Part shown: positions 3,256 to 54,024 of the stretch, piece after piece
Layout of the letters: each line of letters opens with the position of its first letter
Numbering within the stretch: position 1 is the stretch's first letter
NCBI GenBank assembly: GCA_963840175.1
Contig: CAWIXU010000004.1
Location: 9,288-73,287, forward strand
Direction: 5' to 3'
Length of the DNA: 64,000 bases
From: an uncultured Acidimicrobiia bacterium
GTDB taxonomy: Bacteria; Actinomycetota; Acidimicrobiia; Spongiisociales; ZC4RG35
Notes under the pieces: generated by a model
Told to the model about the DNA's origin: nothing
The model's database searches: none
The model's input: only the letters and a program-made list of their open reading frames with translations
Position numbers and translations under genes: made by a program

Positions 3256-4292
3256 GGGCTCGGGATGTCTCCGAGGTCGCTCCCATCCGACTTCGAGCAG
3301 GCGGCGCGCCTCGGCGCCGATCCCGGCACCGGCCGCGACTCGGACCGCGAACGTGCCCATGACCTCGGGGCGTTCGGTCGAGTTGCGGACCACCACCAAG
3401 GGTCGTTTCAAAACCGACACCTCTTCGGCGATCCCTCCCGAATCTGAAATCATCAACGCCGCCTCGGCCTCGAGAGCCAAGAAAGTCGCGATAGCCGATC
3501 GGTTCAACGACCATGAGCTTGTGCGAGCAGAGGCTCCGAGGCCGAACTCCTCGGCCCGGGCGACCGAGCGAGGATGCAACGGCAGCAGGACCGGCAGTGG
3601 CAGCGAGGCGAGCTCGATTCAGAATGGTCGAGTACGTGTCTCGCGTCGTCGACATTCTCGGGTCGATGAAAGGTCGAGAGGATGAAGCGGCCGCTTCCAC
3701 GCCGATACCGAGCCAGAATTTCTCCTACGATCCGTGGGAGCAAGGCGGCGACCGCTTCGACCACCGTGTTGCCTGTCAACGCCACCCGTCCGCCGCGATC
3801 CCCTCGGCGTGCGAGGTTGTCGACCGAAGTTGGCGTCGGGGCGCAACAGAGGTTGCTCAGGTGGTCGGTGACCACCCGGTTGTGCTCCTCGGGCATCCCC
3901 CAGTCGTGGCTCCGCAGCCCCGCCTCGATATGACAGAGGAAGACCGAGCGGGCGTTGGCGGCGAGGGCTCCGGCCGTCACCGAGTTGGTATCCCCTTGAA
4001 CGAGGACGGCACGAGGCTGCTGCTCGGCGAATAGTTCGTCGAGTGAAGCGATGGCCGAACCGATCTGTTGGCCGCGGCTGATCCCGCCGACTTCGAGGAA
4101 GGTGTCAGGGGTTGGGAGGCCGAGGTCGCGGAAGAAGACCTCAGAGAGGTTGGGGTCGTAGTGCTGGCCGGTATGGACGACGAAGGCGGCGTCGCCCAGC
4201 AGATGAATGATGTGGGAGAGCTTGACGATCTCGGGCCGGGTACCCAGCACGACCGCGATTGACTTGGGTGGGAATCCGTACTGGTTGGTCAT
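3196..4292 (-). CDS. wecB: UDP-N-acetylglucosamine 2-epimerase (non-hydrolysing), frameshifted near 3580-3660
   Basis: N-terminal part in ORF 3504..4292 (IAVVLGTRPEIVKL...HTGQHYDPNLS...LVQGDTNSV). C-terminal part in ORF 3196..3579 (ISDSGGIAEEVSVLKRPLVVVRNSTERPE). The two pieces are colinear on the minus strand. Confidence 0.85.
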
Positions 4293-4389
4293 AACCTCGG
4301 CCGGGCATGCTACGGGCTCTCCTCCTTGTTCTTGAGCTGGCCCTCATCGCCCTCATCGCCTACAACCTGCGTTGTCGCTCTGCTTTGGA

Positions 4390-5170
4390 TGGAGAAATCC
4401 CGTGACGAGGGCCAGCGGCAGTCGCGCAGCCACCGCTTCGTCATCGTGATCCCCGCTTACAACGAGGAGCGCGTCGTTGTCGCCCGGCCGGTCGCCGATC
4501 TGACACCACAACTAAGGGAAGGTGACGAGTTGTGGGTGCTCGCCGACCGATGCACCGACGACACGGCCGAGGTGGCGCAGGCGGCCGGAGCGCGCGTCGA
4601 CCGAACGCTCCGAGCGGGCCCGACGGAAAAGGCACCGGCACTGGCATGGTTCGTTGCCAAGCGACCGCTAGTTAGCGACGAGGCGCTCGTCGTGATCGAC
4701 GCCGACAATCGGGTCCCCGGCAAGCTCCTCGATCGGTTCGGCGCCGAACTGACCGACGGGCACTCGGTGCTGCAGGCCTACCTCGATGTGGCCAACCCCG
4801 ACGAGTCGGCGTTGGCGACCGCCTCGGCACTCTCGTATTGGGCTTCGAACCGCATGGTCCAGCTGGCGCGGGCCAACCTGGGTTGGACAGCCGATCTCGG
4901 CGGCACCGGCATGTGTCTGACTTCTCGAGGCGCTGAACGCACGCGGGCGGATTCGGGACATCGTTGGTCGAGGACCAGGACCTCGGAGTTCGCTGCTTTC
5001 TCGCCGGACACCCGGTCCGTTGGCTGCACGACGTTCGAATCGCCGATGAGAAACCTCCCACGGCCACCGTCGCTGTACGCCAACGGTCACGCTGGACAAG
5101 TGGACGTCGTCAGGTCGCTCGCCGTTGGTTGGAGAAGGTTGTCAGCCGAGCGACAGCCGGCGTCGCTTGA
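4390..5170 (+). CDS. Family 2 glycosyltransferase (GT-A fold), frameshifted near 5000
   Basis: ORF 4326..5477 contains FVIVIPAYNEE...VIDADN motifs. It continues in frame 4964..5170 (DQDLGVRCFLAG...RSRWTSG). Confidence 0.65.
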
Positions 5171-5458
5171 TCTCGCGCTTGCGTCTGGTGCAACCTTCGC
5201 GGATGGGGATGGCGTTGCTCAGCGCCGCGCTGGCCGTGGCCTCGGCTCTCGGCGCGTCCTCTGCTTGCCCTGGCCGTTGTGGACGGCGGTTGCGCTGGTC
5301 CAGTTGCTCGCCCCGATCCCGTTTCTGATCCGCGACCGGGTGCCGTCTCGCTATCTGAGGAAATATCCGCTGCTGGCGTTGCTCCCACTGCTCAAGATTC
5401 CGGGCACGCTTCGTCGCAACCGGGAGTGGTATCACACGCCCCACGGGTTATCGGACGG

Positions 5459-6375
5459 TTATCCGACTGGGCCCTGACGGCCCGGGGCGAGCGGAGTAGC
5501 CCGCGAACCAAGCCCGACGCCGTAACTCAGGTGCATGATCGCGATTGACCCAATACCTCGAGCAGCCGTCCCCGACTCGCCGAGGGCGAGCACCACGATC
5601 CAGACGACGATCAGGAGAAGCAGCGGCCACCAAATCGTGGTGAGCAGGCCGAAGGCGACCGCGACGACCAGGCCGAGAACCAGGGCTAGCGGAGCCAGCG
5701 GTCGCCATGACGGGAATTCGCCGTTGAGATAGAGCATGTCGGCCTTGCCCAGTCCGTATCGGTAGAACTGGCGCCACAGAGCTGCCGGTGTGGACCGGGG
5801 TCGATAGGTCGTACGGATACTAGGATCGATGAGGATCCGTCCTCCACGTTGGCGAAGTCGATAGAAGAAGTCGGCATCCTCGGCGACACGAGACGGCAGT
5901 GATCTCATCCCGCCGTTGGCGAGGAAAGTCTGCCCGGGTCATGGTTCCGAGATAGACGGTGTCACCTTCGGTTGGCTCCTCGGTGTGATGAAACGGCGCT
6001 GGTCCGATTCCGAACTTTCGAGCGGTAGGCCGCCGCGACCGCCCGGCCAAAAGCGTTGTCGCCTTGCGGACGCATCGGACCGCCGACCGCTGCGGCTCCC
6101 GAAGCGAGGAGTGCTTGCACCGAACGAGTTACGTAAGTCAGGGCCGTAGGTGGTGTGAGCATCGGCTCGGATCAAGACGTCGGCTGCGGTGTTGTCCGCG
6201 GCGAGGTTGAGCGCGTGCGATTGCAGGCGTCGGGGATTGTCGACGACGCGCAACCTTGGTAGGCGAACCAGCCAGCGGGCAAGATGTTCGGGAGTGGCAT
6301 CGGTGGAACCGCCGTCGGCGACAACGAGTTCCCACTCCCCGGCGTAGTCCTGTTCCTCAATGCTCTGCGAGGCAT
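5459..6375 (-). CDS. Family 2 glycosyltransferase on the minus strand, frameshifted
   Basis: C-terminal part in ORF 5459..5908 (EDADFFYRLRQRGGRI, then a TM helix). N-terminal part in ORF 5939..6253 (DAHTTYGPD...). Confidence 0.55.
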
Positions 6376-6450
6376 TCGTCGATACTCCCGGCCTCGTTGA
6401 AGACCGGAAGCAACACAGCGACCGAGGGCAGTTGATTACGTTCTATCGCA

Positions 6451-7802
6451 ATGACGGATTCGGCCTGGCGCCAGCGGTTGTTTCTGGCAATGGTGGCGGT
6501 GCTCCCGCTTCATACCGTTTATCTAAGCGCCTGGATTTCGTGGAAGCCGTTCATGGTCCTCCTGGCCGTCCTGGCCCTGTGGGACCTGGGCGACGGCATT
6601 CGGCTCCGGCAGTGGCCATGGCACAAGCGAATCACGCTCGCGTTCCTTCCCTTGATGGTGGCGGTTGCGATCGGGTTCCCAGGTCCTGAGCTATCGCGAA
6701 CGATTCATCCGGCTCGCCTTAGCGCTTGTCGTCGGGTTCGGGGTGCTGGCAGTTACCGAGCGACGACTGCGCGGCGTCAGGAATGGGAGCGCGCACCCTA
6801 CGGGTCATCTTCTGGTCCGCGGCCGCCATGGCGGTGACCGGCCTGATCTTCTCGGTGCTGCTTCTCGGCCTCGGGGGGGACGAAGGAATCGACTACCTCA
6901 CAGGGTCGCGCGGTTACGACCTTCCTCTCCTCGACAAAATTGGCAAGCCCGCCTATCTCTTGTCGGGTTTCCTCGCGCTTTCCAACTGGCATCAGGACCC
7001 GGGCTATGGAGCCGCTTGGGCGGTCCTCTGGGCGACATTGGCCCTCATCGCTTCCCTCCGCGGCCTCGGAACCAAAAGTCCTCTGATCGACGGAGCGATC
7101 ATCGGTGTTCTTTGGTCCGCAGTGGTGATGGGATTCTCCCGCACCGGGTGGGTGGCGCTGGCCGTGTCGTTGGTTCTCGTGGCCTGGAAGGTGACACGGC
7201 GAGGATTGGTCAAACGGATCGTCGCTGCAACCGTTGCCCTGATCTTGTCGATGGGGCTTCTCTTCGTCGCTGATGTCGAGAATGTCGGGGGGGAGCTGCC
7301 ACTTCAGTTCGCCTTTCGGCTCCGTCAGGGCTGGGACCTCCTGGCATCGATCACCGGGCTGTTCGAGTCATCCGCAGCCTTCGAGGACCAGTTCCAGCCA
7401 TCCGAGCAACGGGCCGACGTCTGGCCGGAGTACTGGCAACTGTTCCTCGACCACCCGGTCACCGGGGTGGGCTTCGGGGTTGGCTGGGAAACCAACTCCA
7501 TCGGCCAGGAACCGCACAACTTGTTTCTCGAGCTCGGAGCAGAAACCGGGATCATCGGTCTCGTCGCTTTTGCGTTGTTGTTGGGCTTGATCATTCGCGC
7601 CGGCAGCGGAGTTCTCGGGGCGGTGGCGCTGACCGTGTCGTTCTTGCCTGCGTTCACCCAGACAGTGCTCTTCGAACCAACCTGGTGGTTCGCCGCCGGC
7701 CTGTTCTTGGCCGCGGGAGGGAAGTTCGAGGATGCCGCGGAGATGCCTGTAGAGTCGTCTGACGAGTCAGGGGTTGTCACCCCAAAACAAGCTGCTGCCT
7801 AG
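6451..7802 (+). CDS. O-antigen ligase/polymerase family membrane protein (Wzy_C domain), frameshift near 6800
   Basis: ORF 6726..7802 has about 10 TM segments and the Wzy_C-like motif HNLFLELGAETGIIGL. The N-terminal TM segments are in ORF 6451..6837. Confidence 0.65.
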
Positions 7803-7849
7803 GGTTTTGGCGCGCCTTGCGTCTGCCTGGAAAGCTGGAAGGAGCGATT

Positions 7850-9727
7850 TTGCGCTCGCCAATCAGACAACTCCTCGCTGTGATTTTGGCCTTCGGGCTT
7901 CTCGGCGCGAACCTGCCCGTCGCCCACGCGCAGACGACCGATCCGACGTTCACCGTCACCGGATCGGGATGGGGTCACATGGTGGGAATGTCCCAATACG
8001 GAGCGAGGGCGCTCGCCGCGAATGGATCTTCGGCTGCCGATATCACCGGCTTCTATTACGCCGGAACCACCGTGCGTCAAACCACGGACGTCGTTTCCAA
8101 CTTCATGGTCACCGATCCCGATCCGCTCTGGATCGGACTGTTGCAGAACCGGTCGACCTTCAACTTCCGCGTCGACGGCGCCGGACCGGTCGGCCTTTGC
8201 AAAGCCAACGACGGCGAGGGCGAATGTCCCACCCAATTCGCCCTCTCGGGAGAAACCTGGGAGTTCCGCGCGTTGGGCGGCGGTGCCTGCCAGTACTTCA
8301 AAGCCGGGGTGGCAGTTGGCAATCCCGGAACCTGTCGCGGGGCCCTGACCTGGGACTTTGGCACGGGAACGAAGATCTTCTCACCCGATAACGGGCGGAC
8401 ATATGCCCGGGGCATCATCCGCTTCCGTCCGGCCGGAGCCGGATTCCATGTGGTTCTCGAAATCAACATGGAGGGATATCTCTATGGGCTGGGGGAGATG
8501 CCCTCGAGCTGGCCGATGGCGGCGATGCAGGCCCAGGCGATCGCGGCGCGCACCTACGCCTTGCGACAGGCATTGCGATACGGGCCGGAAGAGACGCTTG
8601 ACGCCTCCCGGCAGGCGACCTGTTGGTGTCAGCTGGTCTCCACGGTGGCCGATCAGGCGTACGTGGGTTGGGGCAAGGAGGTGGAGTCGCAAGGAAACCG
8701 GTGGGTCGAGGCAGTCAACACCAGTGCCGGCCAAGTGATCACCCACCCCCAAGCACCGGACTCGACAGTGATCGTCGCCTACTACGCCTCCTCCACGGGA
8801 GGCCACACCGATAGGAATGTCGAGGGCTTGGGCCACACCAATCCCTTGCCTTATCTGGTGGCGACGCCCGACCCCTGGTCCGTGTCAGCCGCCGCGGCTA
8901 ACCCTTTCGCGACCTGGACGCGCACGCTGACCGCAGCCGAGATCGCCACGGCCTTCGGGCTGGAATCAGTCACAGGCGTGGAGGTGACCCGACGCAATGG
9001 CTCCGGTACGGTGGCAGAGGTCACCATTGCCGGCACGCTTGGCGGACAGTCGACACTTCTTGTGCGCAGCGGCCGTAGTTTTCGTGATGCGTTTGCGATG
9101 CGTTCCACTGCCTACGCGATCAGCGGCGGGAGCGGGATCGGGACCGCCATCTGTGACGGCGTACCGCCCCCGGCGGGGTTCACCGATGTCGCGGTCGGCA
9201 ACATCCATTCCGAGGGAATCAACTGCCTGGCCGCCCTGGAGATCACCACCGGGACCACCGCCACCACGTTCTCGCCCGCCCAGGCGGTGAGCAGGTGGCA
9301 GATGGCAGTCTTCTTGATCCGCACCGCTCACGCCCTCGGGATTGCGGTGCCGGCACCCGTGCCGCAGGGATTCACGGACCTAACCGGCATGGCTCTCACC
9401 ACCGTCGATGCGATCAACCAGCTCAAACAACTCGGGGTCACCTCGGGAACGACCCCGACGACCTTTGCCCCCAACGCCAGCGTGTCCCGCTGGCAAATGG
9501 CGCATTTCCTCACCCGTCTTTTCGCGATCGCCGGCGGCGCACCGGCCGGAGCTGGCGCAAGCTTCAGTGATCTCAACGGCCTGAGCCCCGAGACGATCGC
9601 GGCGATTGGCCAGCTGGCCGGTCTGGGGATCACGCTCGGGACGGGTCCCGGGACCTTCGGCCCCAACGACGTGGTCACCCGCGAACAGATGGCGACCTTC
9701 CTCACCCGCCTGATCCGGCTCCTTTAG
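7850..9727 (+). CDS. SpoIID/LytB-domain protein (amidase enhancer family) with three C-terminal SLH domains
   Basis: Intact ORF 7817..9727. RBS GGAAGGA at 7837..7843, then in-frame TTG at 7850. Signal peptide. SpoIID motif GSGWGHMVGMSQYGA. Three SLH repeats at the C-terminus (TFSPAQAVSRWQMAVFL; TFAPNASVSRWQMAHFL; TFGPNDVVTREQMATFL). Confidence 0.85.
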   Translation: MRSPIRQLLAVILAFGLLGANLPVAHAQTTDPTFTVTGSGWGHMVGMSQYGARALAANGSSAADITGFYYAGTTVRQTTDVVSNFMVTDPDPLWIGLLQNRSTFNFRVDGAGPVGLCKANDGEGECPTQFALSGETWEFRALGGGACQYFKAGVAVGNPGTCRGALTWDFGTGTKIFSPDNGRTYARGIIRFRPAGAGFHVVLEINMEGYLYGLGEMPSSWPMAAMQAQAIAARTYALRQALRYGPEETLDASRQATCWCQLVSTVADQAYVGWGKEVESQGNRWVEAVNTSAGQVITHPQAPDSTVIVAYYASSTGGHTDRNVEGLGHTNPLPYLVATPDPWSVSAAAANPFATWTRTLTAAEIATAFGLESVTGVEVTRRNGSGTVAEVTIAGTLGGQSTLLVRSGRSFRDAFAMRSTAYAISGGSGIGTAICDGVPPPAGFTDVAVGNIHSEGINCLAALEITTGTTATTFSPAQAVSRWQMAVFLIRTAHALGIAVPAPVPQGFTDLTGMALTTVDAINQLKQLGVTSGTTPTTFAPNASVSRWQMAHFLTRLFAIAGGAPAGAGASFSDLNGLSPETIAAIGQLAGLGITLGTGPGTFGPNDVVTREQMATFLTRLIRLL

Positions 9728-9775: not shown

Positions 9776-10995
9776 ATGGCGGTTGTTGGCAATGGACCCG
9801 AAACAGAGTGCAGGCGTGACGTCGAAGAGCTGGACTCACCGCGGGGCTTCAAGGCACCGGGCACTGCTCGCATGATCGCCGGCTCGCTGGTCGGCGCGGT
9901 GGCGGCCTACCTCTTCCAGGTGCGTCGGCGTGCGCAGCGTCTGGGGACGGAAGCCTTCGCGCCGATCGCCGTCCTGTGGACCGTCTTCTTCATCGTCGCC
10001 ACTGTGATCGTCTGATTCCTCTGGAGCATTTCGTGACCCGCGAGGTGGGGCGAGGACGACGGGTGCTGCGTTCGGATCGAGCGGCGATGATCCTCTGATC
10101 CTCCTCTCACCGGCAACGCTGATCGCGGCTGTTCGTATTATCTGATGCGGGACCGCCTCTTTGCCGGCGAGTCGATCTTTGCGTTCCAGGCCTTCCTTCT
10201 GACGATCGGGTTTGGATTGATGCAGGTCGGCAAAGGCATCCTGGCCGGACATCGGCAGTTTGCTCGTTACGGGGCGCGTCCTGGGCTCGAAGGAATCATA
10301 CGGCTCTTGGCGGCCGTCATCTTCCTCGCGCTGTCGGCCAGCGCCGTCTCGCTCGGTTGGGCCATGGTGGCCGCGCCTCTCGGCGATCTTCTTCGTCACG
10401 ACCCTGGAGCCACGATCGGGAGACCGTCGCCGGAGTCGTCGCGACGCCGGCCCGCGGGTTCTTGTCTTCTTACGTTGCGGGCGCGGCAGCTTCCCAGCTT
10501 CTACTGGCCGGAGCCCCGCTCGCGGTAGCAGCTCTCGGTGGCAACGAGCATCTGCGTAGCGTCATGTTCGTCACCTTCACTCTGTATCGGGCGCCGCTGA
10601 CGCTGATTTACAACCTGCAGGGCCGAGTTCTTTCACTCCTGGTCCGCCTCGAAAACGGCGACGCGATTCGACGTCTGGATCGACCAGGGTGGCGACCTTC
10701 GGAGTCGGCATGATCGCGGTCGCCGGTCTGGTCGGATGGTTGGTCGGGCCGGCCGTCGTCGAGCTGCTTTACGGGCAGGATGCTCGTCCGATCGCACTCG
10801 TCGCAGCTTGTGCGGCGGCCGGCGTTATCGCCGCCTCGATCACGCAGATCCTTTCGCAGGCGCTGGTGGCGGGAGGATCAACCGGCGAGTTGGCCGGCGC
10901 GTGGGTCGGCGGCCTCGTCGTCGGGCTGGGGACGATGGCGCTTCTGGAACGGGCCTCCCGACGTGCGAGTGGCGGTCGGCTTCCTCGCCGGCGGA
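9776..10995 (+). CDS. Polysaccharide biosynthesis protein / Wzx-like flippase, fragmented by frameshifts
   Basis: TM-rich fragments in ORFs 9776..10015, 10145..10528, 10357..10713 and 10689..11045 (LYGQDARPIALVAACAAAGVIAASITQILSQALVAGG). These resemble the C-terminal half of MATE/Wzx-type flippases and sit inside a glycan-biosynthesis cluster. Confidence 0.4.
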
Positions 10996-11450
10996 GGTTG
11001 TTCGCCCTGGCTTTGGCGACTTGGCGCATTCTCCGTCCGCGTTGACATCCACTCGATATGCGCTCGCCGCAATGCCGGCGACATTCTCTTGATGGCCCCG
11101 TCATCGAGGGGTTGAATTCGGTCCCGAGCGATGATCACGTTCCCGTCGAGGTGAACGAGCCCGGCTGATAGCAAAGTCGAGAGGTGCAAGGGCCGCCGTA
11201 GGGAGTTGCCGCGGAAACCTGCTTGCACGATGCGCAACAGGTCAGCGATCGCTTCTACGCCCAGAACTGCGGACCAAAATCTCCGGACGTACAGATCGGT
11301 TGGGGCGAACCCGGACTCGCTTTTCATGATGGAGACGAGATAGAGCGGACGGCGGGCGACTGTCGGTCGGAGCGCCTCGTCCGGAAGCGGTGCGGCCAAT
11401 GTTGCATAGGGAGGACATGGCAACGGCTTCCGGGACGAGACACTCCTCAC
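10878..11450 (-). CDS. Hypothetical protein, possible winged-helix DNA-binding protein
   Basis: ORF 10878..11450, with likely start at MKSESGF. No family recognised. It lies next to DUF559 cassette copy 1. Confidence 0.3.
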   Translation of the reverse strand: MRSVSSRKPLPCPPYATLAAPLPDEALRPTVARRPLYLVSIMKSESGFAPTDLYVRRFWSAVLGVEAIADLLRIVQAGFRGNSLRRPLHLSTLLSAGLVHLDGNVIIARDRIQPLDDGAIKRMSPALRRAHIEWMSTRTENAPSRQSQGEQPPPARKPTATRTSGGPFQKRHRPQPDDEAADPRAGQLAG

Positions 11451-14826: not shown

Positions 14827-16377
14827 TTGCGCACTCCCAGCGGAATCGAAATCGAGGTTGTCTACGACCAACCCGCCGATCCCGACAAAATCGGCAGTCC
14901 GGGTGAGTATCCGTTCACCCGCGGCCCTCATCCCACGATGTATCGCGGACGGCTCTGGACGATGCGTCAGTACGCCGGCTACGGCACCGCCGACGCCACC
15001 AATCGCCGGTTTCGTGAGCTCCTCGCCGCCGGGCAGACCGGCCTATCGACTGCCTTCGACCTGCCGACGCAGATGGGACTCGACAGCGACCACCCGTTGG
15101 CCGAGGGAGAGGTCGGCAAGGTCGGAGTGGCGATCGACACCCTCGACGACATGCGCCGTCTCTTTCGGGAGATCCCTCTCTCCGAGGTGTCCACCTCGAT
15201 GACGATCAACGCCACGGCTCCGATCCTGCTCCTGCTCTATCAGCTGGTGGCGGAGGAGCAAGGCGTCGATGGCAAGGAAATCCGGGGCACCGTGCAGAAC
15301 GACATCCTCAAGGAGTACGTCGCCCGCGGCACCTACATCTACCCGCCGGGGCCGTCGATGCGGATCGTCACCGACGTCTTCTCGTACGCGGCCAAGGAGC
15401 TCCCGGCCTTCAACCCGATTTCGATCTCCGGCTATCACATCCGCGAAGCCGGCTCCACCGCCGCCCAGGAACTCGCGTTCACGATCGCCCATGGCCTCGC
15501 CTACGTGGATGCCGCCCTGAAAGCCGGCCTCGACATCGACGACTTTGCTCCCCGGCTCTCATTCTTCTGGAACAGCCACAACCTCTTCTTCGAGGAGGTA
15601 GCCAAGTTCCGTGCAGCCCGCCGATTGTGGGCCGACCTGATGCGGAATCGCTTCGGAGCCAAAGACGAGCGGTCGTGGGCGATGCGGTTCCACACCCAGA
15701 CCGCCGGTTCGACTCTGACCGCGCAGCAGACCGGAAACAACGTGGTGCGCACGACCGTCCAGGCCATGGCCGCCATCCTCGGAGGGACGCAATCGCTGCA
15801 CACCAACTCTTTCGACGAGGCCGTTGGACTGCCGACCGACGAATCGGCCCGTCTCGCCTTGCGGACCCAGCAGGTACTCGCCCACGAATCCGGCCTCGCG
15901 GATGACAGTCGATCCGCTGGCCGGCTCCTACTTCGTCGAGGAGCTCACCAACCAGCTCGAAGCCTCGGCCCGCTCACTGCTCGACGCAGATCGAAAGGAT
16001 GGGGGGCGCGGTGGCGGCAATCGAGAGCGGGGTGGACGCAACGTCAGATCGAAGAGGCGGCCTACGAAGAGGCCCGTCGCCAGGAGTCAGGCGAATCGAT
16101 CGTGCTCGGGGTGAACCGATATGTAGTCGGCGATGAGGCTGAGATTCCGGCGTTGAGAATCGACCCTGAGCTGGAGCGCGAGCAAAAGGCGCGCCTCGGC
16201 CAATGGAAGGCAGAGCGCTCGGCAACTGAAGTCGAATCCGCCCTCGACGCCGTCACCATCGCAGCCGGAGACGGGACCAATTTGCTTTATCCCATGAAGG
16301 AAGCGCTTGTCGCCGGTGCAACCTTGGGCGAGTGTTCCGAGGCGATGCGGGCCGTGTTCGGGAGCCACCGACCGTGA
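14827..16377 (+). CDS. Methylmalonyl-CoA mutase family protein, catalytic (beta/alpha)8 domain only with no B12-binding domain; frameshift near 15900
   Basis: ORF 14827..16377 (RGPHPTMYRGRLWTMRQYAGYGTADATNRRFRELLAAGQTGLSTAFDLPTQMG...). The C-terminus ...LYPMKEALVAGATLGECSEAMRAVFG ends at 16377, so the protein is about 520 aa. Confidence 0.8.
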   Translation: MRTPSGIEIEVVYDQPADPDKIGSPGEYPFTRGPHPTMYRGRLWTMRQYAGYGTADATNRRFRELLAAGQTGLSTAFDLPTQMGLDSDHPLAEGEVGKVGVAIDTLDDMRRLFREIPLSEVSTSMTINATAPILLLLYQLVAEEQGVDGKEIRGTVQNDILKEYVARGTYIYPPGPSMRIVTDVFSYAAKELPAFNPISISGYHIREAGSTAAQELAFTIAHGLAYVDAALKAGLDIDDFAPRLSFFWNSHNLFFEEVAKFRAARRLWADLMRNRFGAKDERSWAMRFHTQTAGSTLTAQQTGNNVVRTTVQAMAAILGGTQSLHTNSFDEAVGLPTDESARLALRTQQVLAHESGLADDSRSAGRLLLRRGAHQPARSLGPLTARRRSKGWGARWRQSRAGWTQRQIEEAAYEEARRQESGESIVLGVNRYVVGDEAEIPALRIDPELEREQKARLGQWKAERSATEVESALDAVTIAAGDGTNLLYPMKEALVAGATLGECSEAMRAVFGSHRP

Positions 16378-17744
16378 CCACCGACCCCAAGCGAACCCGC
16401 TTTCTGATTATCGGCGCCGGCCCGGCCGGCACCGCCGCCGCCACCAACGCGGCCGCGCTAGGCGCAAAGGTCACTCTGGTCGAGGACCAGATCGTCGGTG
16501 GCGCGGCCCATCTTTGGGATTGCATTCCCTCCAAGACCATGATCGCCACCGCCGTGCGGATCGACTCGATGCGCAACGCCCCCCGGCTCGGGGTGACCGC
16601 CGCGCCCGGGCAGCGTCGACAGCGCCCAACTAGCCGAGCGAATCTCCATCATCTCCGGCGACATCAACCGCAGCTGGGTCGACCTCCTCAGCAGCCAGGC
16701 GGTCGAGATCATCAACGGGAAGGCCCGGCTGACCGGTCCAATCAGGCGATCGTCGAGGGAGATGACGGCGAACAGCACCGATCGAGCTTTGACGTCTGCC
16801 TGCTCTCGACCGGCTCGGCTCCCGCGTGTCCCGGCCTGGGCAGTCATCGACGGAGAACGAATCCTGACGACTCGCGACGCCTACGACCTCGAGCGAGGTG
16901 CCCGAACAGTTGATCGTGATCGGTTCGGGGGTCACCGGAGTCGAGTTCGTGCACATCTTCGAGTCGCTCGGTTCGGACGTCACCCTGGTGGTCAGCCGTC
17001 AGCAGATCCTTCCCCACCGCGATCCCGAGGTCGCAGCGGTGCTGGAAGAGAACTTCCTCGAAAGCGGGAGTGCGTCTGGTCATCGGCGCTCGCGCGATCG
17101 GGATTGATCGAACCGAAGACGGAGTCAGGGTTCGCTGCGACGACGGGCGGGTGGTCGAAGGCACCCACGCCTTGCTGGCGATCGGCTCGGTCCCGAACAC
17201 CGACTGATCTCGGACTGGGCGAGCTCGGCATCAAGGAGAGCGGCGGTTTCATCCAGGTCGACGAGCATCAGCGGACCTCGGTTCCCCACATCTATGCCGC
17301 AGGAGACTGCACCGGCCAGTTGCTGCTTTCCTCGGTGGCTGCAGTGCAGGGCCGGAAGATCGCCCGTCACGCGATGGGCTTGCCGGTCACACCGATCGAC
17401 TACTCCAAGGTGAGCCAGGCGATTTTCACTGAGCCCGAGATCGCCTCGGTCGGCCTTGAGGAGGCCGAGCTGGCCGCGGGAGGTCGCAAGGTGCGCACAA
17501 CCAAAGTGCCCTTTGCCGCCAACGCTCGGGCGGTGCTGCAAGGAAATCCCCGCGGCTTCGTCAAAGTCATGTCGGATCCCGCCACCGGAGTCGTCCTGGG
17601 CGGGAGCATCGTCGGCCACCGCGCCTCGGAGCTGATCGGGATCATGGCCCTCGCGGTCAAAGCGCGGGTCACGGTCAACGTCCTCGTCGACACCCTGATG
17701 GTGCACCCCTCCTCTCGGAAGCGATCAGCGAAGCAGCGGAGTGA
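16374..17744 (+). CDS. Pyridine nucleotide-disulfide oxidoreductase, LpdA-like (single-Cys CIPSK motif like M. tuberculosis Rv3303c NAD(P)H quinone reductase); frameshifted
   Basis: GTG at 16374 overlaps the upstream stop. FAD-binding motif IIGAGPAGTAAA. Active-site region GGAAHLWDCIPSK has one Cys instead of CxxxxC. NAD-binding VIGSGVTGVEF in ORF 16898..17107. Dimerisation domain in ORF 16762..17784, ending ...SEAISEAAE at 17744. Confidence 0.7.
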
Positions 17745-17772
17745 GACGTCAGATCAGACGTCAGACATCAGA
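17743..17772. repeat. Heptad repeat arm (GACGTCA GATCA GACGTCA GACATCA) immediately after the lpdA-like stop
   Basis: Tandem GAC(G/A)TCA heptamers seen in the sequence. Inverted copy at 18623..18656 and paired copies at 45427..45505. Confidence 0.7.
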
Positions 17773-17896
17773 ATGTCGTTGTAGCCAACGTTCGTGAACT
17801 GCCGACACACGGTTCCAGAGCGCATCTACGGCGCTCGGAGGTCCGTCGGGGCGAATGGCGAAGACATCTGCCAAGGCGGCGAACCAGTCGCCCGGA

Positions 17897-18656
17897 TTAT
17901 CCAGCGTGGTTGAAGTCGACTCGTGCTCTCGACGTCGGGTGAGGACGCATCCCCGGAGAATGTCGGTCCCGTTCTCGAGTCGAAGCTGGGCGGTGACGAC
18001 TCCGGCAAAGCTCGATTCGGGGGACGTCGACAGGTGCTTGTGCCGTTCGCCGACACGCGTCCATCTCCACCTGGCCTGTCCGAAAGCTCATGCCCGAGAA
18101 GGAGCCGGTGGAATCGTGGGTGAAGTGCCAATCGCCAACCCCATCATCGGTCTCCTCGAAGCGAAAGGTCATTGGGTTCTGGGCATAAGTGCCCGAGATC
18201 ATTGGAAGCGGGTCGTATAGCCCGTCGCCAAGTCCCGCGTCCACCCACCAATCTCCATTCGGGTTCTCAGCCGTTGGGAGGTCATGGGCAACAAGCACCA
18301 GGTGATTCGACAACCACTTGACGTCGGGACCCTCGGGTCCATGTACGCCGCCGATGTGGCGGGTCACGTGATAGCCCAGCGAACCCAACACGAGGGATAA
18401 GGCTCCGTTCATCTGATAGCAGTAGCCGCCGCGGCTGTGGTTGGCGATTCGGTCCAGCGAGGCGGTCGGGTCGATGCTCCAGTTCTCGGACATATGAATC
18501 CACACGGATTCGTAAGGCACCCGTTCGACCCAAGCCCGATGGAGCCGGCTGCAGTGCCTCCGCGGAGGGAGGCTCCACCTCGACCCCGATGCGTCCTAGC
18601 GCCCGAACGACGTCCGGCTCTATCTGATGTCTGAAATCTGATGTCTGATGTCTCAC
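17897..18656 (-). CDS. nat: Arylamine N-acetyltransferase, frameshift near 18480-18520
   Basis: ORF 17897..18520 has the catalytic-Cys motif HSRGGYCYQMNG and the downstream NAT fold. The N-terminal YxxRIG-type segment (VRALGRIGVEVEPPSAEALQ) is in the frame of ORF 18282..18794. Confidence 0.7.
18623..18656. repeat. Heptad repeat arm, inverted relative to 17743..17772 (TGATGTC TGAAATC TGATGTC TGATGTC)
   Basis: Reverse complement of the 17743 arm at about 85% identity. Overlaps the nat 5-prime end and the stop codon of the upstream lipoprotein gene. Confidence 0.7.
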
Positions 18657-20154
18657 TGGTAGCTCACGTATACCGGTACGGGGTCGAGGGCTAGCACCTC
18701 CGCTGGAGTGGCTCCTCCCCGAGGGGTGTCTTCGTCGTAGAAGTTCTTCCAGCCCCAGAGGAAATTGTCGCCGTTTGCGGTTAGCGCGTCCCACGTGTCG
18801 TATTTGGTGCCGAGCGGTCCCTGTCCGTCCATCTGGATTACAGTCGCCAGCTCAGGATGAGTGACGATCTGGTCGCGGTTCTCGATCATGTCGAGACGGA
18901 ACTGATGGAGCAGGAAGAACTTCTGCGGGCAGCTTGTTCTCGCGGACGAGAGCGGCGAGCCACTCGGAAACCTGGTTGACCTCGGCGGCGTCGACCGATC
19001 CGATTTGGCGGAGATGGACCTGGTCGGGTTCCAGCCGCCACTCCGGGTCGAGGGCGAGACCGACGTGAGGCAAGCCGAGAAATTCTTCGTACGGCCTTGG
19101 CCTGGGTGAGGAAATCGGTGCGACCTGGTTGCAGATCGAGGATCACGTACACATCGTTGGCGGCGGCAACCTCGATCCACGGTCGGATGACGTCGAGGCT
19201 CATCTCTTCGGAGTAGTTGTTGTCGTCGCCCGGGAAGGCGGACGCGACGGTGGCGATGATTTCGAAGCCCAAGACGACTGGAGTCCCGTCGGCGTCATAG
19301 CCGGCGGCGATCTCAGCCGCCCTCGCGACGGCTTCCTCGGGACCCTGCTCGCCGAGGACCCCAAGCGCCGACGTGGTCGGGTTGCCATAGAGCGCCACCA
19401 ACCTTCGACCCGGGAACAGCTTGAGCCCGCCACCGGGGAGCTCTGGGGCGTTGACGAGCGCGCCGCTTTGCCATTCGATGAGCTCGGGATCAAAGCCCCC
19501 GGCGACGAACATCTCCTGCGCGGGGGTCGATCTCACCGACTCGAGCAACGCCTGGTCGCCGAGCATGTTGTGTGGATCGGCAAGGACGACCCGGTCACCC
19601 CGTAAGCCGGCGAGAGCGGTCACGGGAGCGACGAGGTCGGACCTGGTGGCGTCCGCCAGCCAGATATTTTCGCCTTCTGTGTCATCGGTTGGGTTTCTGC
19701 CGGCGGCCGCGATGGCTTCCTGTAGAGCGATCGAGTTGCTGGGAATTCCGGCCACCCCACTAGGGAGGGCGCCCCCAACGACCGAGATCGAGTGTGGTGC
19801 GAGGCGGCGTAGCTCATCTACGACCTCGGCGTCAGTCCCTGCGACCAAAAGCGGTGCCTTGATGGAGGCGGCGTAAGCGCCTGCTGCCTCGAGTTCCGGC
19901 GTCGAACCGCTCGCCACCACGACGTGGTCGGCGCACGCCAGGGTGGCCTTGGAGAGGGCGATCGAGAGCTCGACGGGGTCGGTGCTGGTGAAGATCTGCT
20001 GATCGGGTGCGATTCGACATTCCCGGGCCGTGGTTGTGGTTATCGCCTCAGTCGTGGTCGTCGCCGACGGTATTGACGAAGGCGTGCTCGTGCCACCGGC
20101 CGAAGTGCATGAAGCCAACACCAGCCAGACAATCACGGCCGATTTTTGGTTCAA
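18653..20154 (-). CDS. Lipoprotein with repeated cell-wall-binding-like modules and a C-terminal putative glycoside-hydrolase-like domain; frameshift near 19100
   Basis: Minus-strand translation (the ORF track labels 18886..20343 as plus, but it matches the reverse complement). Lipobox VIVWLVLASC. Three repeats of the type ELEAAGAYAASIKAPLLVAGTDAEVVDELRRLAPHSISVVGG. C-terminal DVYVILDLQPGRTDFLTQAKA... continues in ORF 18653..19180. Confidence 0.45.
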
Positions 20155-21909
20155 CGGATGACGGCCAGCACGGCTCCCAGCGAGACGGTGTCGCCGGCTT
20201 GCACCCGGAGGTCGACGACCTCGCCGGCGCTCGGGGAGCGCACCTCGTTCTCCATCTTCATCGCCTCGAGCACGCAGATCGGCTGGTTCGGCTTCGACCT
20301 TGTCGCCTGCCTTCACATGCACTTTGACGATCGTGCCCTGCATCGGCGCGCGTGACGACTCCGTCGTTGCGCACCCGACGCGGCGGGCCGGTCGAGCTTC
20401 GGCCGAGCTCTCCGCGTCATCCCGGGTCCAGTCGCGGGACCAGCGTCAGGTGACCAGTAGGTGACCGCAAACCGCCGTCCCACCGATCTCGACGGTCATG
20501 TCGCGGCGGGCGAGCTCCTCGTCCTCGGGCAGCGTTGGCTGCGACGAGCGGCGTGGCGTCGGGGAACTTGACCTGATCCTCGAGCCAGCGGGTGTAGTGA
20601 CGGCCTTCGAGAAAGTCGGGATGATCGAGCACAATGAGATGCGCAGGGATGGTTGTCGCCACCCCGGTGATCAGAAATTCCTCGAGGGCGCGACGGCCGC
20701 GTCGGATGGCTGGTCGCGATCGCTACCCCACACGACCAGCTTGGCCATCAGGTTGTCGTAGTACTGGCTCACCCTGGTGGTCGGGCTGGATCCAACCATC
20801 GACGCGCACGCCCGGCCCGGCCGGTTCGCGGTAGTCGGCGACCTGACCTGGCGTCGGCAGAAAGCCGCGCAGCGGATCCTCGGCGTTGATCCGGAATTCG
20901 ATGGCGTGGCCCCGCGGGCGTGACCGAGTCGAAGTCGAGCTTCTCGCCCTGCGGCGATCCGCAGCTGCCACTCCACGAGGTCGAGACCGGTGACCATCTC
21001 GGTGACCGTGTGTTCGACCTGGAGGCGGGTGTTCATCTCGAGGAAGTAGAACTCGCCCGATTCGGGATCGAAGAGAAACTCGACGGTGCCGGCGTTGACG
21101 TATCCGCACGAGCGCCCGGCGGCCAGGGCGGCTTCGCCCAAGAGCGTTGCGCTGTTCGGCGGTCATACCCGGGGACGGGGTTTCTTCGATCAGCTTCTGG
21201 TGTCGTCGTTGCACGGTGCAGTCGCGCTCGCCGAGGAAGACACCGTGGCCGGCTGGGTCGAAGAGGATCTGCGCTTCGACGTGACGCGGGCGCGGCAGGT
21301 ACTTCTCGACGTAGACCTCGGGGTTTCCGAAGTAGGCGTCGGCCTCGCGCCTGGCCCCGTCGAACGCCGCCACCGATCTCGCTCGCGCTGTTGACCACGC
21401 GCATTCCTTTGCCGCCGCCGCCGTGGGCGGCCTTGATCGCGATCGGATAGCCGAACTCTTCGGCGAGGGCGGCGACCGTCTCCACCGATTCGGCCGGTTC
21501 GGAGGTCCCTGGAACCGTCGGCAATCGCCGCCTCGGCGGCATGTCGCCGCGAGGTGATCTTGTCGCCCATCGCCTCGATGGCCGCGGGAGGAGGGCCGAC
21601 CCAGGTGATGCCGGCCCTGGTGACCGCCTCGGCGAACCCGGCGTTCTCGGCGAGAAAGCCGTAGCCGGGATGGATCGCATCGGCCCGAGCGGCCGCGGCG
21701 ACCTGGAGGATCTTTTGGGCGTTCAGATAGGACTCGGCCGCGGGCGCCGGTCCCACGTTCCAGGACTCGTCGGCCAACTGCACGTGCAGCGAGTCGCGAT
21801 CGAGGTCCGAATAGATGGCAATCGTGTGGATGCCCATCTCCTGGGCGGTGCGGATGACCCGCACCGCGATCTCTCCCCGGTTGGCGATGAGGAGGCGGGA
21901 AATGGTCAC
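20151..21909 (-). CDS. accA: Acyl-CoA carboxylase alpha subunit (biotin carboxylase plus biotin carboxyl carrier domain), several frameshifts
   Basis: GTG start at 21909 ([21 protein letters not shown]). ATP-grasp segments in ORFs 21190..21909, 21033..21680 and 20671..21141. Biotinyl domain ...[10 protein letters not shown] / ...[31 protein letters not shown]...VIR with stop at 20151. Confidence 0.85.
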
Positions 21910-44765: not shown

Positions 44766-45418
44766 AGAATCCGACTGTTCTTGTTGTCGACGACGCGCCT
44801 ATTTTTCAGGCGGGTTTGGCGGCTGCCCTCAAAGTGGAGGGCTTCGACGTCGTGGCGATTGCCTCCGATGCCCTCACTGCAATTGCTGAAGCCCGCCGTC
44901 ACCGCCCGGCTCTGGTTGTTCTGGACGTGTTGATGCCGGGGATCTCGGGTCTCGATGTCGTTGACAAGATCACCGACGCCTCGCCGGGAACCAAGGTTGT
45001 GCTGCTGACGTCGAGCGACTCCGAGGAGGACTTGCTCACGGCGATCAAGGCAGGAGCTTCCGGCTACATCATCAAAGACACGCCATTCCCCAAGCTGGTG
45101 GCGGCGATGAATGAAGTCGTCAAAGGGGGAGCCGTAGTGTCGCCCAAGCTTGCGGCCCGGCTCTTTGATGTGGTGGCCCATCTGCTGCGCAATCGGGATC
45201 TCAACGCCACCCGCCGGCCCTCTCTCACCGGTCGCGAGGTGGAGATCCTGCAATGGATCGCCGATGGTCGAACCTCGCGCGAGATAGGCGAACAGCTCTA
45301 CATCTCCGAGAACACCGTCAAGAACCACGTCCGCAACATCTTGGACAAGCTGGGGATGCAGTCCCGGCACGAAGCGGTCCGCTACGCCGAACACGCGGGA
45401 CTTCTGAATCGCCGATAG
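44762..45418 (+). CDS. NarL/LuxR-family two-component response regulator
   Basis: Intact ORF 44762..45418. Receiver domain (VLVVDD...VVLDVLMPGISG...SSDSEEDLLTAIKAGASGYIIKD) plus LuxR HTH (LTGREVEILQWIADGRTSREIGEQLYISENTVKNHVRNILDKLG). Confidence 0.85.
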   Translation: MKNPTVLVVDDAPIFQAGLAAALKVEGFDVVAIASDALTAIAEARRHRPALVVLDVLMPGISGLDVVDKITDASPGTKVVLLTSSDSEEDLLTAIKAGASGYIIKDTPFPKLVAAMNEVVKGGAVVSPKLAARLFDVVAHLLRNRDLNATRRPSLTGREVEILQWIADGRTSREIGEQLYISENTVKNHVRNILDKLGMQSRHEAVRYAEHAGLLNRR

Positions 45419-45426
45419 GCGATTCA

Positions 45427-45505
45427 GAGACGTCAGACATCAGACGTCAGACATCAGACTGGGATTCCATCTGAAGTCTGAAATCTGATGTCTGATGTCT
45501 TCTCA
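45427..45505. repeat. Long imperfect inverted repeat (about 24-bp stem) built from GAC(G/A)TCA heptads, between the response regulator and secA; possible terminator/attenuator or regulator-binding array
   Basis: Left arm GAGACGTCAGACATCAGACGTCAGACATCAGAC, loop TGGGATTCCATCTGAA, right arm GTCTGAAATCTGATGTCTGATGTCTTCTC. Same repeat family as 17743..17772 and 18623..18656. Confidence 0.65.
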
Positions 45506-45528: not shown

Positions 45529-48124
45529 ATGTCCATCTTTTCCAAGCTGCTCAAGGCCGGTGAAGGCAAGACCCTGCGCGAATTCGAGCGTCTCGTCGTC
45601 GAGGTCAATGCCCTCGAACCGACCATCTCAGCGCTGGATGACGCTCAACTAGCCAACCAGACCGTCGAGTTCCGGCGCCGGCTCGACGCCGGGGAGCCGC
45701 TCGATGACCTGGCCGTCGAGGCCTTCGCCACGGTCCGGGAGGCAGCGCAACGAGTCATCGGGGAGCGTCACTTCGACGTCCAGGTGATCGGCGCTTTGGC
45801 ACTCCATCGGGGGATGGTGGCCGAGATGAAGACCGGCGAGGGCAAAACCCTGGTTTCGTCGATGCCCGCCTATCTCAACGCCCTTCCTGGCACCGGCGTG
45901 CACATCGTCACCGTCAACGACTACCTCGCCTCCCGCGACGCCGACTGGATGGGCGCCATCCATCGTTTCCTCGGGCTCAACGTCGGGCTCATCCAAACCG
46001 GTATGGAACCCGGAAAGCGGCAATCCGGCCTACGCCGCCGACATCACCTACGGAACCAACAACGAGTTCGGGTTCGACTATCTGCGTGACAACATGGCGA
46101 TGCGGGCGAGCGACCGTGTCCAGCGCGGCCACGTTTATGCGATCGTCGATGAGGTCGACTCGATCCTGATCGACGAAGCCCGCACCCCGTTGATCATTAG
46201 CGGCCGGCTGTCGGATGCGGCCAAGTGGTATCGAGACTTCGCTCGAATTGCGAACCGGTTACGACGCGATGAGCACTACGAAGTCGATGAAGCCAAGCGA
46301 CAGGTATTGACCACCGAGGAAGGCGTCGGATTCGTCGAAGAGATACTCGGAGTCGAAAACCTCTATGACCACGCCGCGGTCGACTTCGTCCACCATCTCG
46401 AGTCATCGCTGCGAGCCAAGGAGCTCTACCAGCGGGACGTGGAATATCTCGTTGACCAGGGCGAAGTCAAGATCGTTGACGAATTCACCGGGCGCGTACT
46501 CGAAGGTCGTCGTTATTCAGAAGGGCTTCACCAGGCCATCGAGGCGAAGGAAGGGGTGAAGATCAAAGAAGAGAATCAGACCCTCGCCACGATCACTCTC
46601 CAGAACTACTTCCGGCTCTACCAGAAGCTTGCCGGGATGACCGGCACCGCCGAAACCGAAGCGGCCGAGCTGGCGCAGATTTATGGACTCGAAGTGCTGG
46701 TCATCCCGCCGAACCGGACCGTGGCGCGAGCCGACCAACCCGACCTGGTCTTTAAGTCAGAGGATGCCAAGTTCCAAGCAGTCGTCGATGACATCGTCGC
46801 GCGCCATGAGGCGCAACAGCCCATCCTGCTGGGCACCGTCTCGATCGAGAAGTCCGAGCGTCTCTCGAAGATGTTGCAAAAGCGGGGCATCGAGCATGAA
46901 GTGCTCAACGCCAAGAATCATGCCCGGGAGGCTGAAATCATCGCGCAGGCGGGGCGTCCCGGCGCGGTGACCGTGGCCACCAACATGGCCGGGCGGGGAG
47001 TCGACATCAGGCTGGGTGGGAATCCCGAAGGTCTGGCGCGCGTCGAGCTCAAGCGCCAGCAGGTGCCGGAAGAGGAGTTCGAGAAAAAGCTCGCCGAAAC
47101 CACTGCCCGCTACGCCGCCGAGATCGCTCCGATCAAGGAAAAGGTGATCGAAAGCGGTGGGCTTTACGTCGTGGGCACCGAGCGTCACGAATCCCGCCGG
47201 ATCGACAATCAGCTGCGTGGTCGTTCGGGCCGCCAGGGTGATCCGGGCGAGTCCCGGTTCTATTTGTCGCTGGGAGACGACCTGATGCGTCGTTTCTCTG
47301 GGGATCGAGTTTCGTCGTTGATGGATCGGATGAAGATTCCCGACGACGTACCCATCGAGGCCGGCATGGTGACCAAGGCCATCGAACGAGCGCAGAAAAC
47401 GGTGGAAGCACAGAACTTTGAGCTTCGCAAGAACGTCCTCAAATTCGATGAGGTGATGAACAAGCAAAGAGAAGTCATCTACGACTGGCGCGTGGATTTG
47501 CTCGAGGCGTCGGGTGAGGATCTGGTCACAGAATGGATCGAGGTCGTAGTCGCCGATACCGTCGAGGCGGTTTTTCCACCCGAGCTCGCACCGTCGGAAT
47601 GGGATTGGGAATTGCTCAACAAAGAGCTAGTTCAGATTTATCCGTCAACGCTCAAAGAGCCGGGACCGGAAGGATCCTCGCTGGAGGATGTCATCGACGC
47701 GGCCGTCGAAGAGGCCAACGCGGCCTATGCAGCGAAGAGCAAGGAATTGGGGCTCGAGAACATGCGCCAGGTCGAGCGCCAGGTGATTCTGTCGGTGATC
47801 GACAACAAGTGGCGCGAGCACCTATCCGAAATGGACTACCTGCGCGCTGGAATCGGCCTGCGCGCCATGGGCCAACGCGATCCGCTGGTCGAATATCAGC
47901 GCGAGGGCTACTCGATGTTCAGCGAACTGGTCGAATCGGTGAAGCGTGACACCGTTCGCTATTTGTTCCACGTCCAATTGGCGGAGCCCGCCGCCCCGGC
48001 TGCCCCCAAAGTCGTCAACGATGATCAGTCAAAGTCAATTCGAAGCAGCGGCGCCGTGGGCCGCAACGATCCCTGCCCATGTGGCAGTGGCAAGAAATAC
48101 AAACGCTGCCACGGTGCGGCGTAA
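45529..48124 (+). CDS. secA: Preprotein translocase subunit SecA, one frameshift near 46010-46090
   Basis: N-terminal ORF 45529..46089 ([18 protein letters not shown]...[10 protein letters not shown]...[19 protein letters not shown]). ORF 46094..48124 covers the rest through the C-terminal zinc motif [14 protein letters not shown]. Confidence 0.9.
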
Positions 48125-53650: not shown

Positions 53651-53673
53651 GGCTCGGCCGTTCTTCGTAATCG

Positions 53674-54024
53674 TGGAGGCGGCGGGAATCGGACCCGCGT
53701 CCCATGAGTCGTCAGCGCCGGCATCTCCGAGCGCAGCCGTCGGCGAGCTTGTCGGCAAGAAGGACCCCAACGGCGGGCTTCCCACTCGCTTATCCGGAGT
53801 TGATCTTTGCCCTCCGGTCCCGGATCCCGGAGGACGCATCCTGCATTGCGACGCCCGATTCCGGCGAGGCAGGCGCCCACCGGGCGGACGGGCTGCGTTA
53901 TTTAGGCAGCCAGTGCGAAGTTGTCTTCGGCACTTGTGTTTGTTTCCGGCTCTTTAACGAGGTTCCGGAGACCTCGGCTCGCTTCCGACGCATCAACACT
54001 CATGGTCGAAACCATTTCGCCCCC
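53674..54024 (-). ncRNA. ssrA: tmRNA (ssrA), about 351 nt; tag reading frame ...GCC GAA GAC AAC UUC GCA CUG GCU GCC UAA (AEDNFALAA)
   Basis: Minus-strand 5-prime end GGGGGCGAAAUGGUUUCGACC (compare M. tuberculosis GGGGCUGAACGGUUUCGAC). 3-prime tRNA-like end GGACGCGGGUCCGAUUCCCGCCGCCUCCA(+CCA). Acceptor stem GGGGGCG/CGCCUCC with G3-U70. Tag ends ALAA, then UAA UAA. Located just downstream of smpB as in other Actinobacteria. Coordinates +/-2 nt. Confidence 0.8.

Follow-up and report, generated by a model that had tools for sequence, protein, structure and literature searches.

In a 64,000-nucleotide stretch of DNA from an uncultured Acidimicrobiia bacterium (assembly GCA_963840175.1, contig CAWIXU010000004.1, positions 9,288 to 73,287; the whole of it is hereafter the window), nat, a gene for an arylamine N-acetyltransferase (NAT), is bracketed by two inverted arms built of tandem heptanucleotides of the form GACRTCA. 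We consider it probable that these arms are separate, stop-codon-anchored members of a GACRTCA heptanucleotide simple-sequence-repeat (SSR) family, with about four units each, rather than the ends of a transposing unit, and that nat is a resident gene. In this reading, two conserved convergent genes, an lpdA-like gene and a gene for a lipoprotein, would each anchor one arm at the stop codon, with the array in sense orientation to the gene. The nat gene has absorbed both arrays, starting at a GTGA overlap with the lipoprotein stop, reading the right array as 10 extra N-terminal codons, and terminating at a TGA inside the left array, whose reverse orientation closes all frames.

The left arm (A', 17745-17772, forward strand), as delimited by Tandem Repeats Finder (TRF), a pattern search and alignment with the other A-type arms, reads GACGTCA GA(--)TCA GACGTCA GACATCA GA and begins with the first base after the lpdA-like stop. 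The right arm (B', 18623-18652, reverse strand), which reads GACATCA GACATCA GATTTCA GACATCA GA, likewise begins with the first base after the lipoprotein stop. A' is thereby in sense to the lpdA-like gene and B' to both the lipoprotein gene and nat, and the opposite strand of A' supplies the last nat codons and the nat stop (...H S D V TGA). With at most one mismatch, GACRTCAGACRTCA has six matches in the 64 kb against 0.10 expected, a count reached in 0 of 100 shuffles; loose period-7 arrays of at least four units number three in the 64 kb versus 0.25 in shuffles. The period-7 tandem repeats that TRF reports in the window are exactly four (4.4-4.6 copies each), the two nat arms and the two arms of a hairpin upstream of secA, all of them head-to-tail series of 7-nt units above chance, as is expected of heptanucleotide SSRs, and all beginning at a stop codon or 10 nt past one. 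Around nat, an inverted-repeat search recovers arms of 17-20 nt that are 90-94% complementary and 850-864 nt apart. A sequence-only reading of the window had described inverted heptad arms bracketing nat; they are read directly in the DNA and are above chance, with the outer limits given there (17743 and 18656) off by 2-4 nt. Its further claim that the arms enclose nat alone also holds, the product matching Pfam PF00797 (Acetyltransf_2; E = 1.8e-22 on the largest intact frame).

The nat gene (17761..18656, reverse strand) has 297 codons once two 1-nt insertions are removed, a gene model that is fixed by the intact orthologue P0002 (297 aa, 84% identical to the window NAT) on the short-read contig of the related genome L122. 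The start codon is a GTG (18656-18654) overlapping the lipoprotein stop as GTGA, codons 2-11 (RHQTSDFRHQ) are the right arm, giving the N-terminal reading MRHQTSDFRHQ-IEPD..., and the stop is a TGA (17763-17761) within the left arm. P0002 is organized in the same way: its start overlaps the lipoprotein stop as ATGA, its N-terminus (MRHQTSDFRHQIEPD) equals that of the window NAT, and its C-terminus is QSDV*, with the TGA inside a TCTGACG array. After the array, the window and L122 have ATA where L121, another relative, has an internal ATG, so that the overlapping upstream start is the only canonical start of the window nat; a sequencing error of ATG as the source of this ATA was rejected, since the short-read contig carries it too. 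A lookup of P0051, the broken NAT fragment of the window, returned no record. The product has over 1000 homologues, of which many bear the name arylamine N-acetyltransferase, and in alignment with the solved NAT 3d9w the RGGYCY motif, which holds the catalytic Cys, is conserved; the triad His and Asp are tentatively assigned to NHLVL and VDAGLGD by reading against known NAT motifs.

The recruitment of both arms into the nat open reading frame (ORF) follows from the unit itself: (GACRTCA)n has no stop codon in any frame, and in the reverse orientation (TCTGAYG)n has a TGA in all three frames within 21 nt. It is because nat terminates inside the left array that it looks exactly bracketed by the arms. 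The overlap of the right arm with nat had been recognized earlier, an account now completed by the left arm, which overlaps the ORF as well and holds its stop. Such co-option shows how one orientation of an array, open in three frames, can donate N-terminal codons and translational coupling, and the other a stop. Between the B' arms of the window (18623-18652), L121 (9949-9978) and L122 (132-161) there are only two differences (ACA/ACG and GAT/GAC), both synonymous in the nat frame, which would be weak evidence for a coding constraint on the array.

Comparison with relatives establishes nat as an old, vertically inherited chromosomal resident between the lpdA-like and lipoprotein genes. The lipoprotein-nat-lpdA order is found in four genomes (the window, L121, L122 and L123), and in L121, L122 and L123 it lies within the longer order biotin carboxylase, lipoprotein, nat, convergent lpdA and methylmalonyl-CoA mutase. 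The NATs of these three are 92%, 84% and 69% identical to that of the window, a divergence that parallels the divergence of the flanking genes, and five NATs form one clade in a neighbor-joining tree that carries no bootstrap support. A further NAT (P0003, 76% identical) has the N-terminus MSDFRDQISDQ. The GC content of nat equals that of its neighbors; at third codon positions (GC3) the values are 0.75 versus 0.76-0.77 in L121 and 0.69 versus 0.70-0.73 in L123.

Across L121, L122 and L123 the arms vary independently of nat. Both are present in L122; L121 keeps the B arm, while its lpdA side carries one A unit (TGAGACGTCAG) together with an unrelated, roughly 175-bp element that has inverted ends of its own; and L123 lacks the B arm and retains only a degenerate heptad remnant at the lpdA stop. 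Counted in units, the A arm at nat is 1, 4 and about 5 long in L121, the window and L122, respectively. The L121 element (10863-11035) lies between the nat and lpdA stops, has imperfect inverted ends of 20-43 nt (GTTTCTCCCCCCGGAGGGGG...) and occupies the exact place of the A array in the window and L122; it is possibly a small miniature inverted-repeat transposable element (MITE) that replaced most of that array.

An intact pair of arms lies between a NarL/LuxR-type response-regulator gene and secA. It comprises an A arm (45429..45458, forward strand; GACGTCA GACATCA GACGTCA GACATCA GA), a near-palindromic loop of 11 nt (45459..45469; CTGGGATTCCA, in orthologous hairpins CTGGGATCCCA) and a B arm (45470..45499, reverse strand; GACATCA GACATCA GATTTCA GACTTCA GA). 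The adjacent pair reported by the sequence-only reading therefore exists, with its limits corrected to these coordinates and the 11-nt loop placed between the arms. Immediately 5' of it, a predicted 11-bp stem-loop (45403..45428, forward strand), whose sequence is conserved in relatives, holds the TAG stop of the response-regulator gene (45416-45418) in its loop, and the segment 45395-45525, comprising the heptad hairpin and this small stop-codon stem, folds at -72.5 kcal/mol (z = -10.8). The number of units in the left and right arms is 3/4 in L214 and in L215, 4/4 in the window and 5/3 in L216-219, with a conserved loop (CTGGGATYCCA), and the hairpin is absent in L222, whose response regulator is 89% identical. 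Both this hairpin and the nat A arm differ by entire units from one close relative to another, as other SSRs do, and judging from the aligned sequences these shifts in whole 7-nt steps are microsatellite-like behavior. Of the 30 positions of nat arm B', 29 equal those of the secA hairpin's B arm, and the match extends to the unusual third unit, GATTTCA.

In the SSR reading, the 7-nt steps would reflect replication slippage, template switching or gene conversion would keep the nat arms alike and alike to the secA hairpin, and adjacent arrays, once transcribed, would give the upstream gene a very stable 3'-terminal stem-loop. The wider distribution of the repeat was surveyed by a pattern scan with one genome per species; about 1000 chance matches are estimated from the pattern length, and the figures that follow hold among the matches listed. 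GACRTCA arrays are found in many phyla. Those starting at a sense stop (-8 to +3 nt, with a frame of at least 80 codons) make up 25 of the 107 evaluable arrays (23%, versus 2.3% at random), an antisense ORF ends in the array in 36 of 107 (34%), and 17 arrays have an inverted partner within 250 nt. At three loci in Gemmatimonadota and Acidimicrobiia (L004, L051, L059) both arms of the hairpin abut the ends of long convergent open frames. The arrays are accordingly intergenic, at or overlapping stops and often in inverted pairs, as are the SSRs of Xanthomonas. A scan of viral contigs returned nine plain direct arrays, with no hairpins and no link to this lineage. In another Acidimicrobiia metagenome-assembled genome (L074, 6640-6700), by reading, a GACRTCA array stands right after the 3' CCA of an apparent tRNA gene, and arrays hence follow the ends of RNA genes as well as protein stops.

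Several observations weigh against this reading. The arrays are rare in this lineage (two loci in the 64 kb, and not one across 515 kb of metagenomic loci that are more distant); they therefore do not behave as a general terminator. These 515 kb are the 80 loci (35-70% identity) returned by a metagenome scan anchored on the lipoprotein, none of which has nat or lpdA nearby; we rejected them as candidate empty sites, all being in other gene contexts and thus uninformative. The nat arms copy the A- and B-type unit order of the secA hairpin almost exactly, which is unexpected from independent slippage and needs either gene conversion or a common origin from a single hairpin. An outgroup without nat that carries a heptad hairpin at the same junction suggests, from the aligned loci, that the arms may predate nat. 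No T-run or U-tract follows the secA hairpin, where a consensus terminator scan is also empty, and a test of an RNA-level role by the strand preference of folding energies (G-U versus A-C) gave no consistent direction over ten hairpins.

The last two points bear on what the arrays might do. In the computed folds, arms that lie next to each other pair into a highly stable stem-loop, as RNA or DNA, right behind the gene end, and the modeled structure may be a tail-less terminator or protect the 3' end. Tail-less terminators are known in Actinobacteria. At the gathering threshold, Rfam models detect in the window only a transfer-messenger RNA (tmRNA) and nothing at the arrays, and scans for consensus terminators and promoters find nothing at the nat or secA locus.

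The competing origin that survives best, which we regard as possible though clearly less probable than separate stop-anchored arrays, is that a single ancestral heptad hairpin between the lpdA-like and lipoprotein genes was split when nat inserted once in or next to its loop, the present arms being its resized halves, lost in some descendants. Loci without nat were reached through lpdA homologues. In L210/L211 (lpdA 78% identical) and L212/L213 (77%) the lpdA and lipoprotein genes are directly convergent. L210/L211 have at this junction a heptad hairpin whose arms abut both stops (lpdA TAG|ACGCCAG ACGCTGG ACGCAAG ACGCCAG, 36 nt, CTGGCGT CTGCCGT CTGGCGT CTCA|lipoprotein stop; unit GACGCCA; in L210 a fold of -52 kcal/mol, z = -4.1), and in L212 the two stops are 3 nt apart with no repeat. 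Junctions without nat, a check for which had been suggested earlier, thus occur in two forms, one keeping a heptad hairpin and one having none.

A split hairpin would also explain why the nat arms match the intact secA hairpin in both arm types, A and B. Moreover, nat owes its stop to the array in the window, L122 and L123, where its last codons are array-derived (SDV*/SDL*), from which it follows that the lpdA-side array is at least as old as the nat-lpdA junction and was already there at the L123 split. A weak likeness (6-7 of 11 positions) between the 5' flank of nat in L121 (GATGGATTC) and half of the secA loop (GATGGAATC) points the same way and is not relied on. Against these stand the difference in unit, GACGCCA in L210 and GACRTCA here, which requires a concerted C-to-T change; the lack of arrays in the empty L212/L213, in L205-209 and on the B side of L123, which demands several losses versus two gains; the absence of any loop remnant flanking nat in the window; and the likeness of the arms to the secA hairpin of the same genome, too great for an event older than 30% protein divergence unless homogenization continues. 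The proposal of the sequence-only reading that nat is a cargo gene at a pre-existing hairpin site accordingly draws some support from the empty outgroup with its heptad hairpin; any such insertion must be old because it predates about 30% NAT divergence.

The junction is variable in its gene content (NEVERTHELESS variable), with nat, a hydrolase and a permease, or nothing between the two genes according to lineage, a variability in keeping with an insertion, and heptad arrays occur on the lpdA-like and lipoprotein stops both with and without a gene between them. The place of nat is taken by an alpha/beta hydrolase and an amino-acid permease in L205-209 (lpdA 92%), a group that falls between the window clade and L123. 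These loci point to a single arrival of nat at the junction that preceded the L123 split, and to its later replacement in the L205 lineage. The junction thus offers a small natural test case for whether 3'-end hairpins mark permissive sites of gene gain. In the L205 segment concerned (4001-8945; likewise in L206-L209) the hydrolase has a GC3 of 0.68 versus 0.76-0.80 in its neighbors, and an unrelated perfect palindrome of 22 bp follows the lpdA stop of L205. In L210 (8984-9220) and L212 (8873-9083), long AGACGGA, GACGTGA and GTGGGTG/GAGTGGT arrays lie upstream of the biotin carboxylase gene; from such sequences, heptad repeats of several unit types appear to be common in these Acidimicrobiia-like genomes.

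We think it unlikely that the heptad hairpin is itself a copy-and-paste palindromic element that marks gene 3' junctions and serves as a landing pad, with nat and the hydrolase-permease pair integrated in its loop. Other Acidimicrobiia genomes do show the A/B arm architecture at sites that are not orthologous, and Gemmatimonadota have similar heptad hairpins anchored on stops.

A functional alternative, to which we give about as little credence, is long-range RNA pairing of the separated arms, in which a stem of some 30 bp would enclose the whole nat ORF, start codon included, and regulate nat translation or stability. The minimum-energy fold of the 951-nt nat transcript does pair both arms, and the arm-arm duplex is predicted at -47.4 kcal/mol in the window and -49.1 in L122, versus -13 to -17 for shuffles. 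However, nat is kept where such pairing is lost, in L121 (92% NAT identity) without the 3' arm and in L123 without both arms; where the arms differ by G/A, the nat-sense strand has A-C mismatches and not G-U pairs; and there is no covariation between the arms. Long-range pairing of this kind could be compatible with either origin of the arms.

We find very improbable the idea, advanced by the sequence-only reading, of a terminal-inverted-repeat (TIR)-bounded mini-element carrying nat, here taken as resembling a MITE or a cassette and as mobile now or until recently; nat itself is neither a mobile cassette nor a TIR-bounded element. Inverted arms of 28-30 nt do exactly bracket a single gene of accessory type, much as TIRs would, and heptad-containing TIRs around a unit of about 250 bp exist elsewhere, in an Acutalibacteraceae genome. 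However, nat keeps the same neighbors in the four genomes with arms that are variable or absent, one arm lacking in L121 and both in L123; synteny of nat in relatives devoid of the arms was an observation that the sequence-only reading had itself named as refuting. There is no target-site duplication, the outer flanks GCGGAGT| and |ACTGGTA, i.e., ...GCGGAGT(GA) and (TC)ACTGGTAGC, forming no direct repeat and being the stop-codon contexts of the lpdA-like and lipoprotein genes. The NATs are monophyletic with a composition that matches the host genome, the ORF of nat takes in both arms, and its translation is coupled to that of the upstream gene. We find no transposase or integrase in about 41 kb of annotated syntenic sequence; the unit of nat plus arms was seen only at the syntenic locus and in no other context, and NAT homologs in other contexts (L124, P0008) have no arrays. 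Of the features of a MITE or TIR-bounded element, the locus thus shows the terminal inverted repeats and neither the target-site duplication nor the presence at multiple non-syntenic sites with precise empty counterparts. This removes a false lead, in that this nat is no mobile cassette for an enzyme modifying xenobiotics or drugs.

The unit in the Acutalibacteraceae genome (L048 1752-1999; L086 32-60; L093 340-400) has TIRs with GACRTCA heptads (CATAGAGCTGGAGACATCAGACGATCAGACGTCAGAC...) and is present on several contigs; it is possibly a genuine MITE with heptad-built TIRs. A similar unit of about 250 bp is seen in an Oscillospiraceae genome (L031 and L081, listed alongside).

That the arrays are artefacts of an error-prone long-read assembly is barely conceivable: the window housekeeping genes do have many 1-nt indels and one arm unit is 5 nt long, but the same arrays recur with identical placement in independent short-read assemblies of relatives (L122 for the nat arms, L216-219 for the secA hairpin), by which comparison they are judged not to be artefacts, and doubt is left only for the 5-nt GATCA unit of arm A' (17752-17756), which may be an assembly indel error.

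Tandem heptanucleotides in cyanobacteria are known as short tandemly repeated repetitive (STRR) sequences, and repeats of this period recur in other bacteria. Heptad arrays in inverted pairs at stop codons are in fact an already described kind of repeat (PMC4692102). The Xanthomonas GGGAATC heptamers are mostly of four units, with 70-75 cases of inverted pairs, lie 0-50 bp from a stop codon or overlap it, and keep their positions between species with varying lengths (PMC4692102). With these and the Nostoc GGGGAYT repeats (Rehm et al., 2015; PMC4692102) the GACRTCA arrays share the tandem 7-nt units, the number of about four and the convergent pairs capable of forming stem-loops. They differ in not being G-rich, which leaves no G-quadruplex possible, in their low density (two loci in 64 kb versus about 185 repeats per Xanthomonas genome; PMC4692102), and in that one inverted pair is here split by a whole gene, with both arrays recruited into its ORF. 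The GACRTCA family is hence a clear example of repeats behaving like those of Xanthomonas, with a unit spread over many phyla; what is new is the recruitment of arrays as the N-terminal codons and the stop of nat, and a marked junction whose gene content varies.

Among long simple repeats, heptanucleotides form the most abundant class in many bacteria, and their over-representation has been explained by slippage of the polymerase (Mrazek, 2007, as cited in PMC4679880); further examples are the tandem heptanucleotides of Calothrix PCC7601 (as cited in PMC4692102) and the TAACTGA repeats of Beggiatoaceae, Cyanobacteria and Bacteroidetes (MacGregor, 2015; PMC4679880). To the extent that they are described in these sources, they resemble the GACRTCA arrays in the period of 7, the mostly intergenic location and the 7-nt indel steps between strains, and also in the scatter of one unit over distant phyla with no evident mechanism of transfer. 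The TAACTGA arrays are direct repeats mainly just upstream of starts, whereas the GACRTCA arrays run from stops and are commonly inverted pairs.

Repetitive extragenic palindromes (REPs) and the bacterial interspersed mosaic elements (BIMEs) are comparable in being imperfect palindromes that follow genes at their 3' ends, in many cases where two genes converge, in forming stem-loops at mRNA 3' ends and in having similar copies within a genome. However, REPs are high-copy, associated with the REP-associated tyrosine transposase (RAYT) and free of tandem heptads, whereas the elements here are heptad-built, the 64 kb holding two loci and the annotated syntenic genes including no RAYT. Palindromic elements of Rickettsia can insert in frame and be translated within host proteins. 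With MITEs and these Rickettsia elements the nat locus shares terminal inverted repeats, and its B' array is similarly part of an ORF; it differs from them in lacking a target-site duplication, a repeated internal sequence and any presence/absence polymorphism of the unit as a whole, and the bracketed gene is vertically inherited. Integron cassettes are alike in that a single promoterless gene of accessory type is bounded by hairpin-capable sequences (attC), but a cassette has a complete attC hairpin at one end, whereas here there is half a hairpin at each end and nat is co-translated with a core gene. The annotated genes of the 41-kb syntenic sequence include no integrase, and the arms, inspected by eye and not by a pattern search, show no GTTRRRY core sites. 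A literature search for the literal repeat strings gave only unrelated primer matches.

Turning to the genes that flank nat, the lpdA-like gene (16332..17744, forward strand) encodes a flavoprotein of the NAD(P)H-quinone/dihydrolipoamide dehydrogenase family (three-frame translation; Pfam Pyr_redox_dim and Pyr_redox_2), 98% identical to the L121 lpdA product (tblastn). Its true-frame stop is the TGA at 17742-17744, its C-terminus (...LSEAISEAAE*) is that of the orthologs, and it has about five 1-nt frame changes in the window assembly. The conserved lipoprotein gene (18653..20343, reverse strand; 20343 is the upper limit of the mechanically called ORF) belongs to no Pfam family, ends in ...DPVPVYVSYQ* with the stop TGA at 18655-18653, and has one frame change in the window and a lipobox-like N-terminus in orthologs. 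Single-nucleotide frame changes occur in the window in the lpdA-like gene (16300-17750), nat (17760-18660) and secA (45529-48124), the short-read orthologs being intact; on this comparison they look like long-read indel errors and not pseudogenes. Unrelated to the arrays, the window also carries an ordinary tmRNA gene (53671-54024) with the tag AEDNFALAA, upstream of which smpB is found in L214 and L215.

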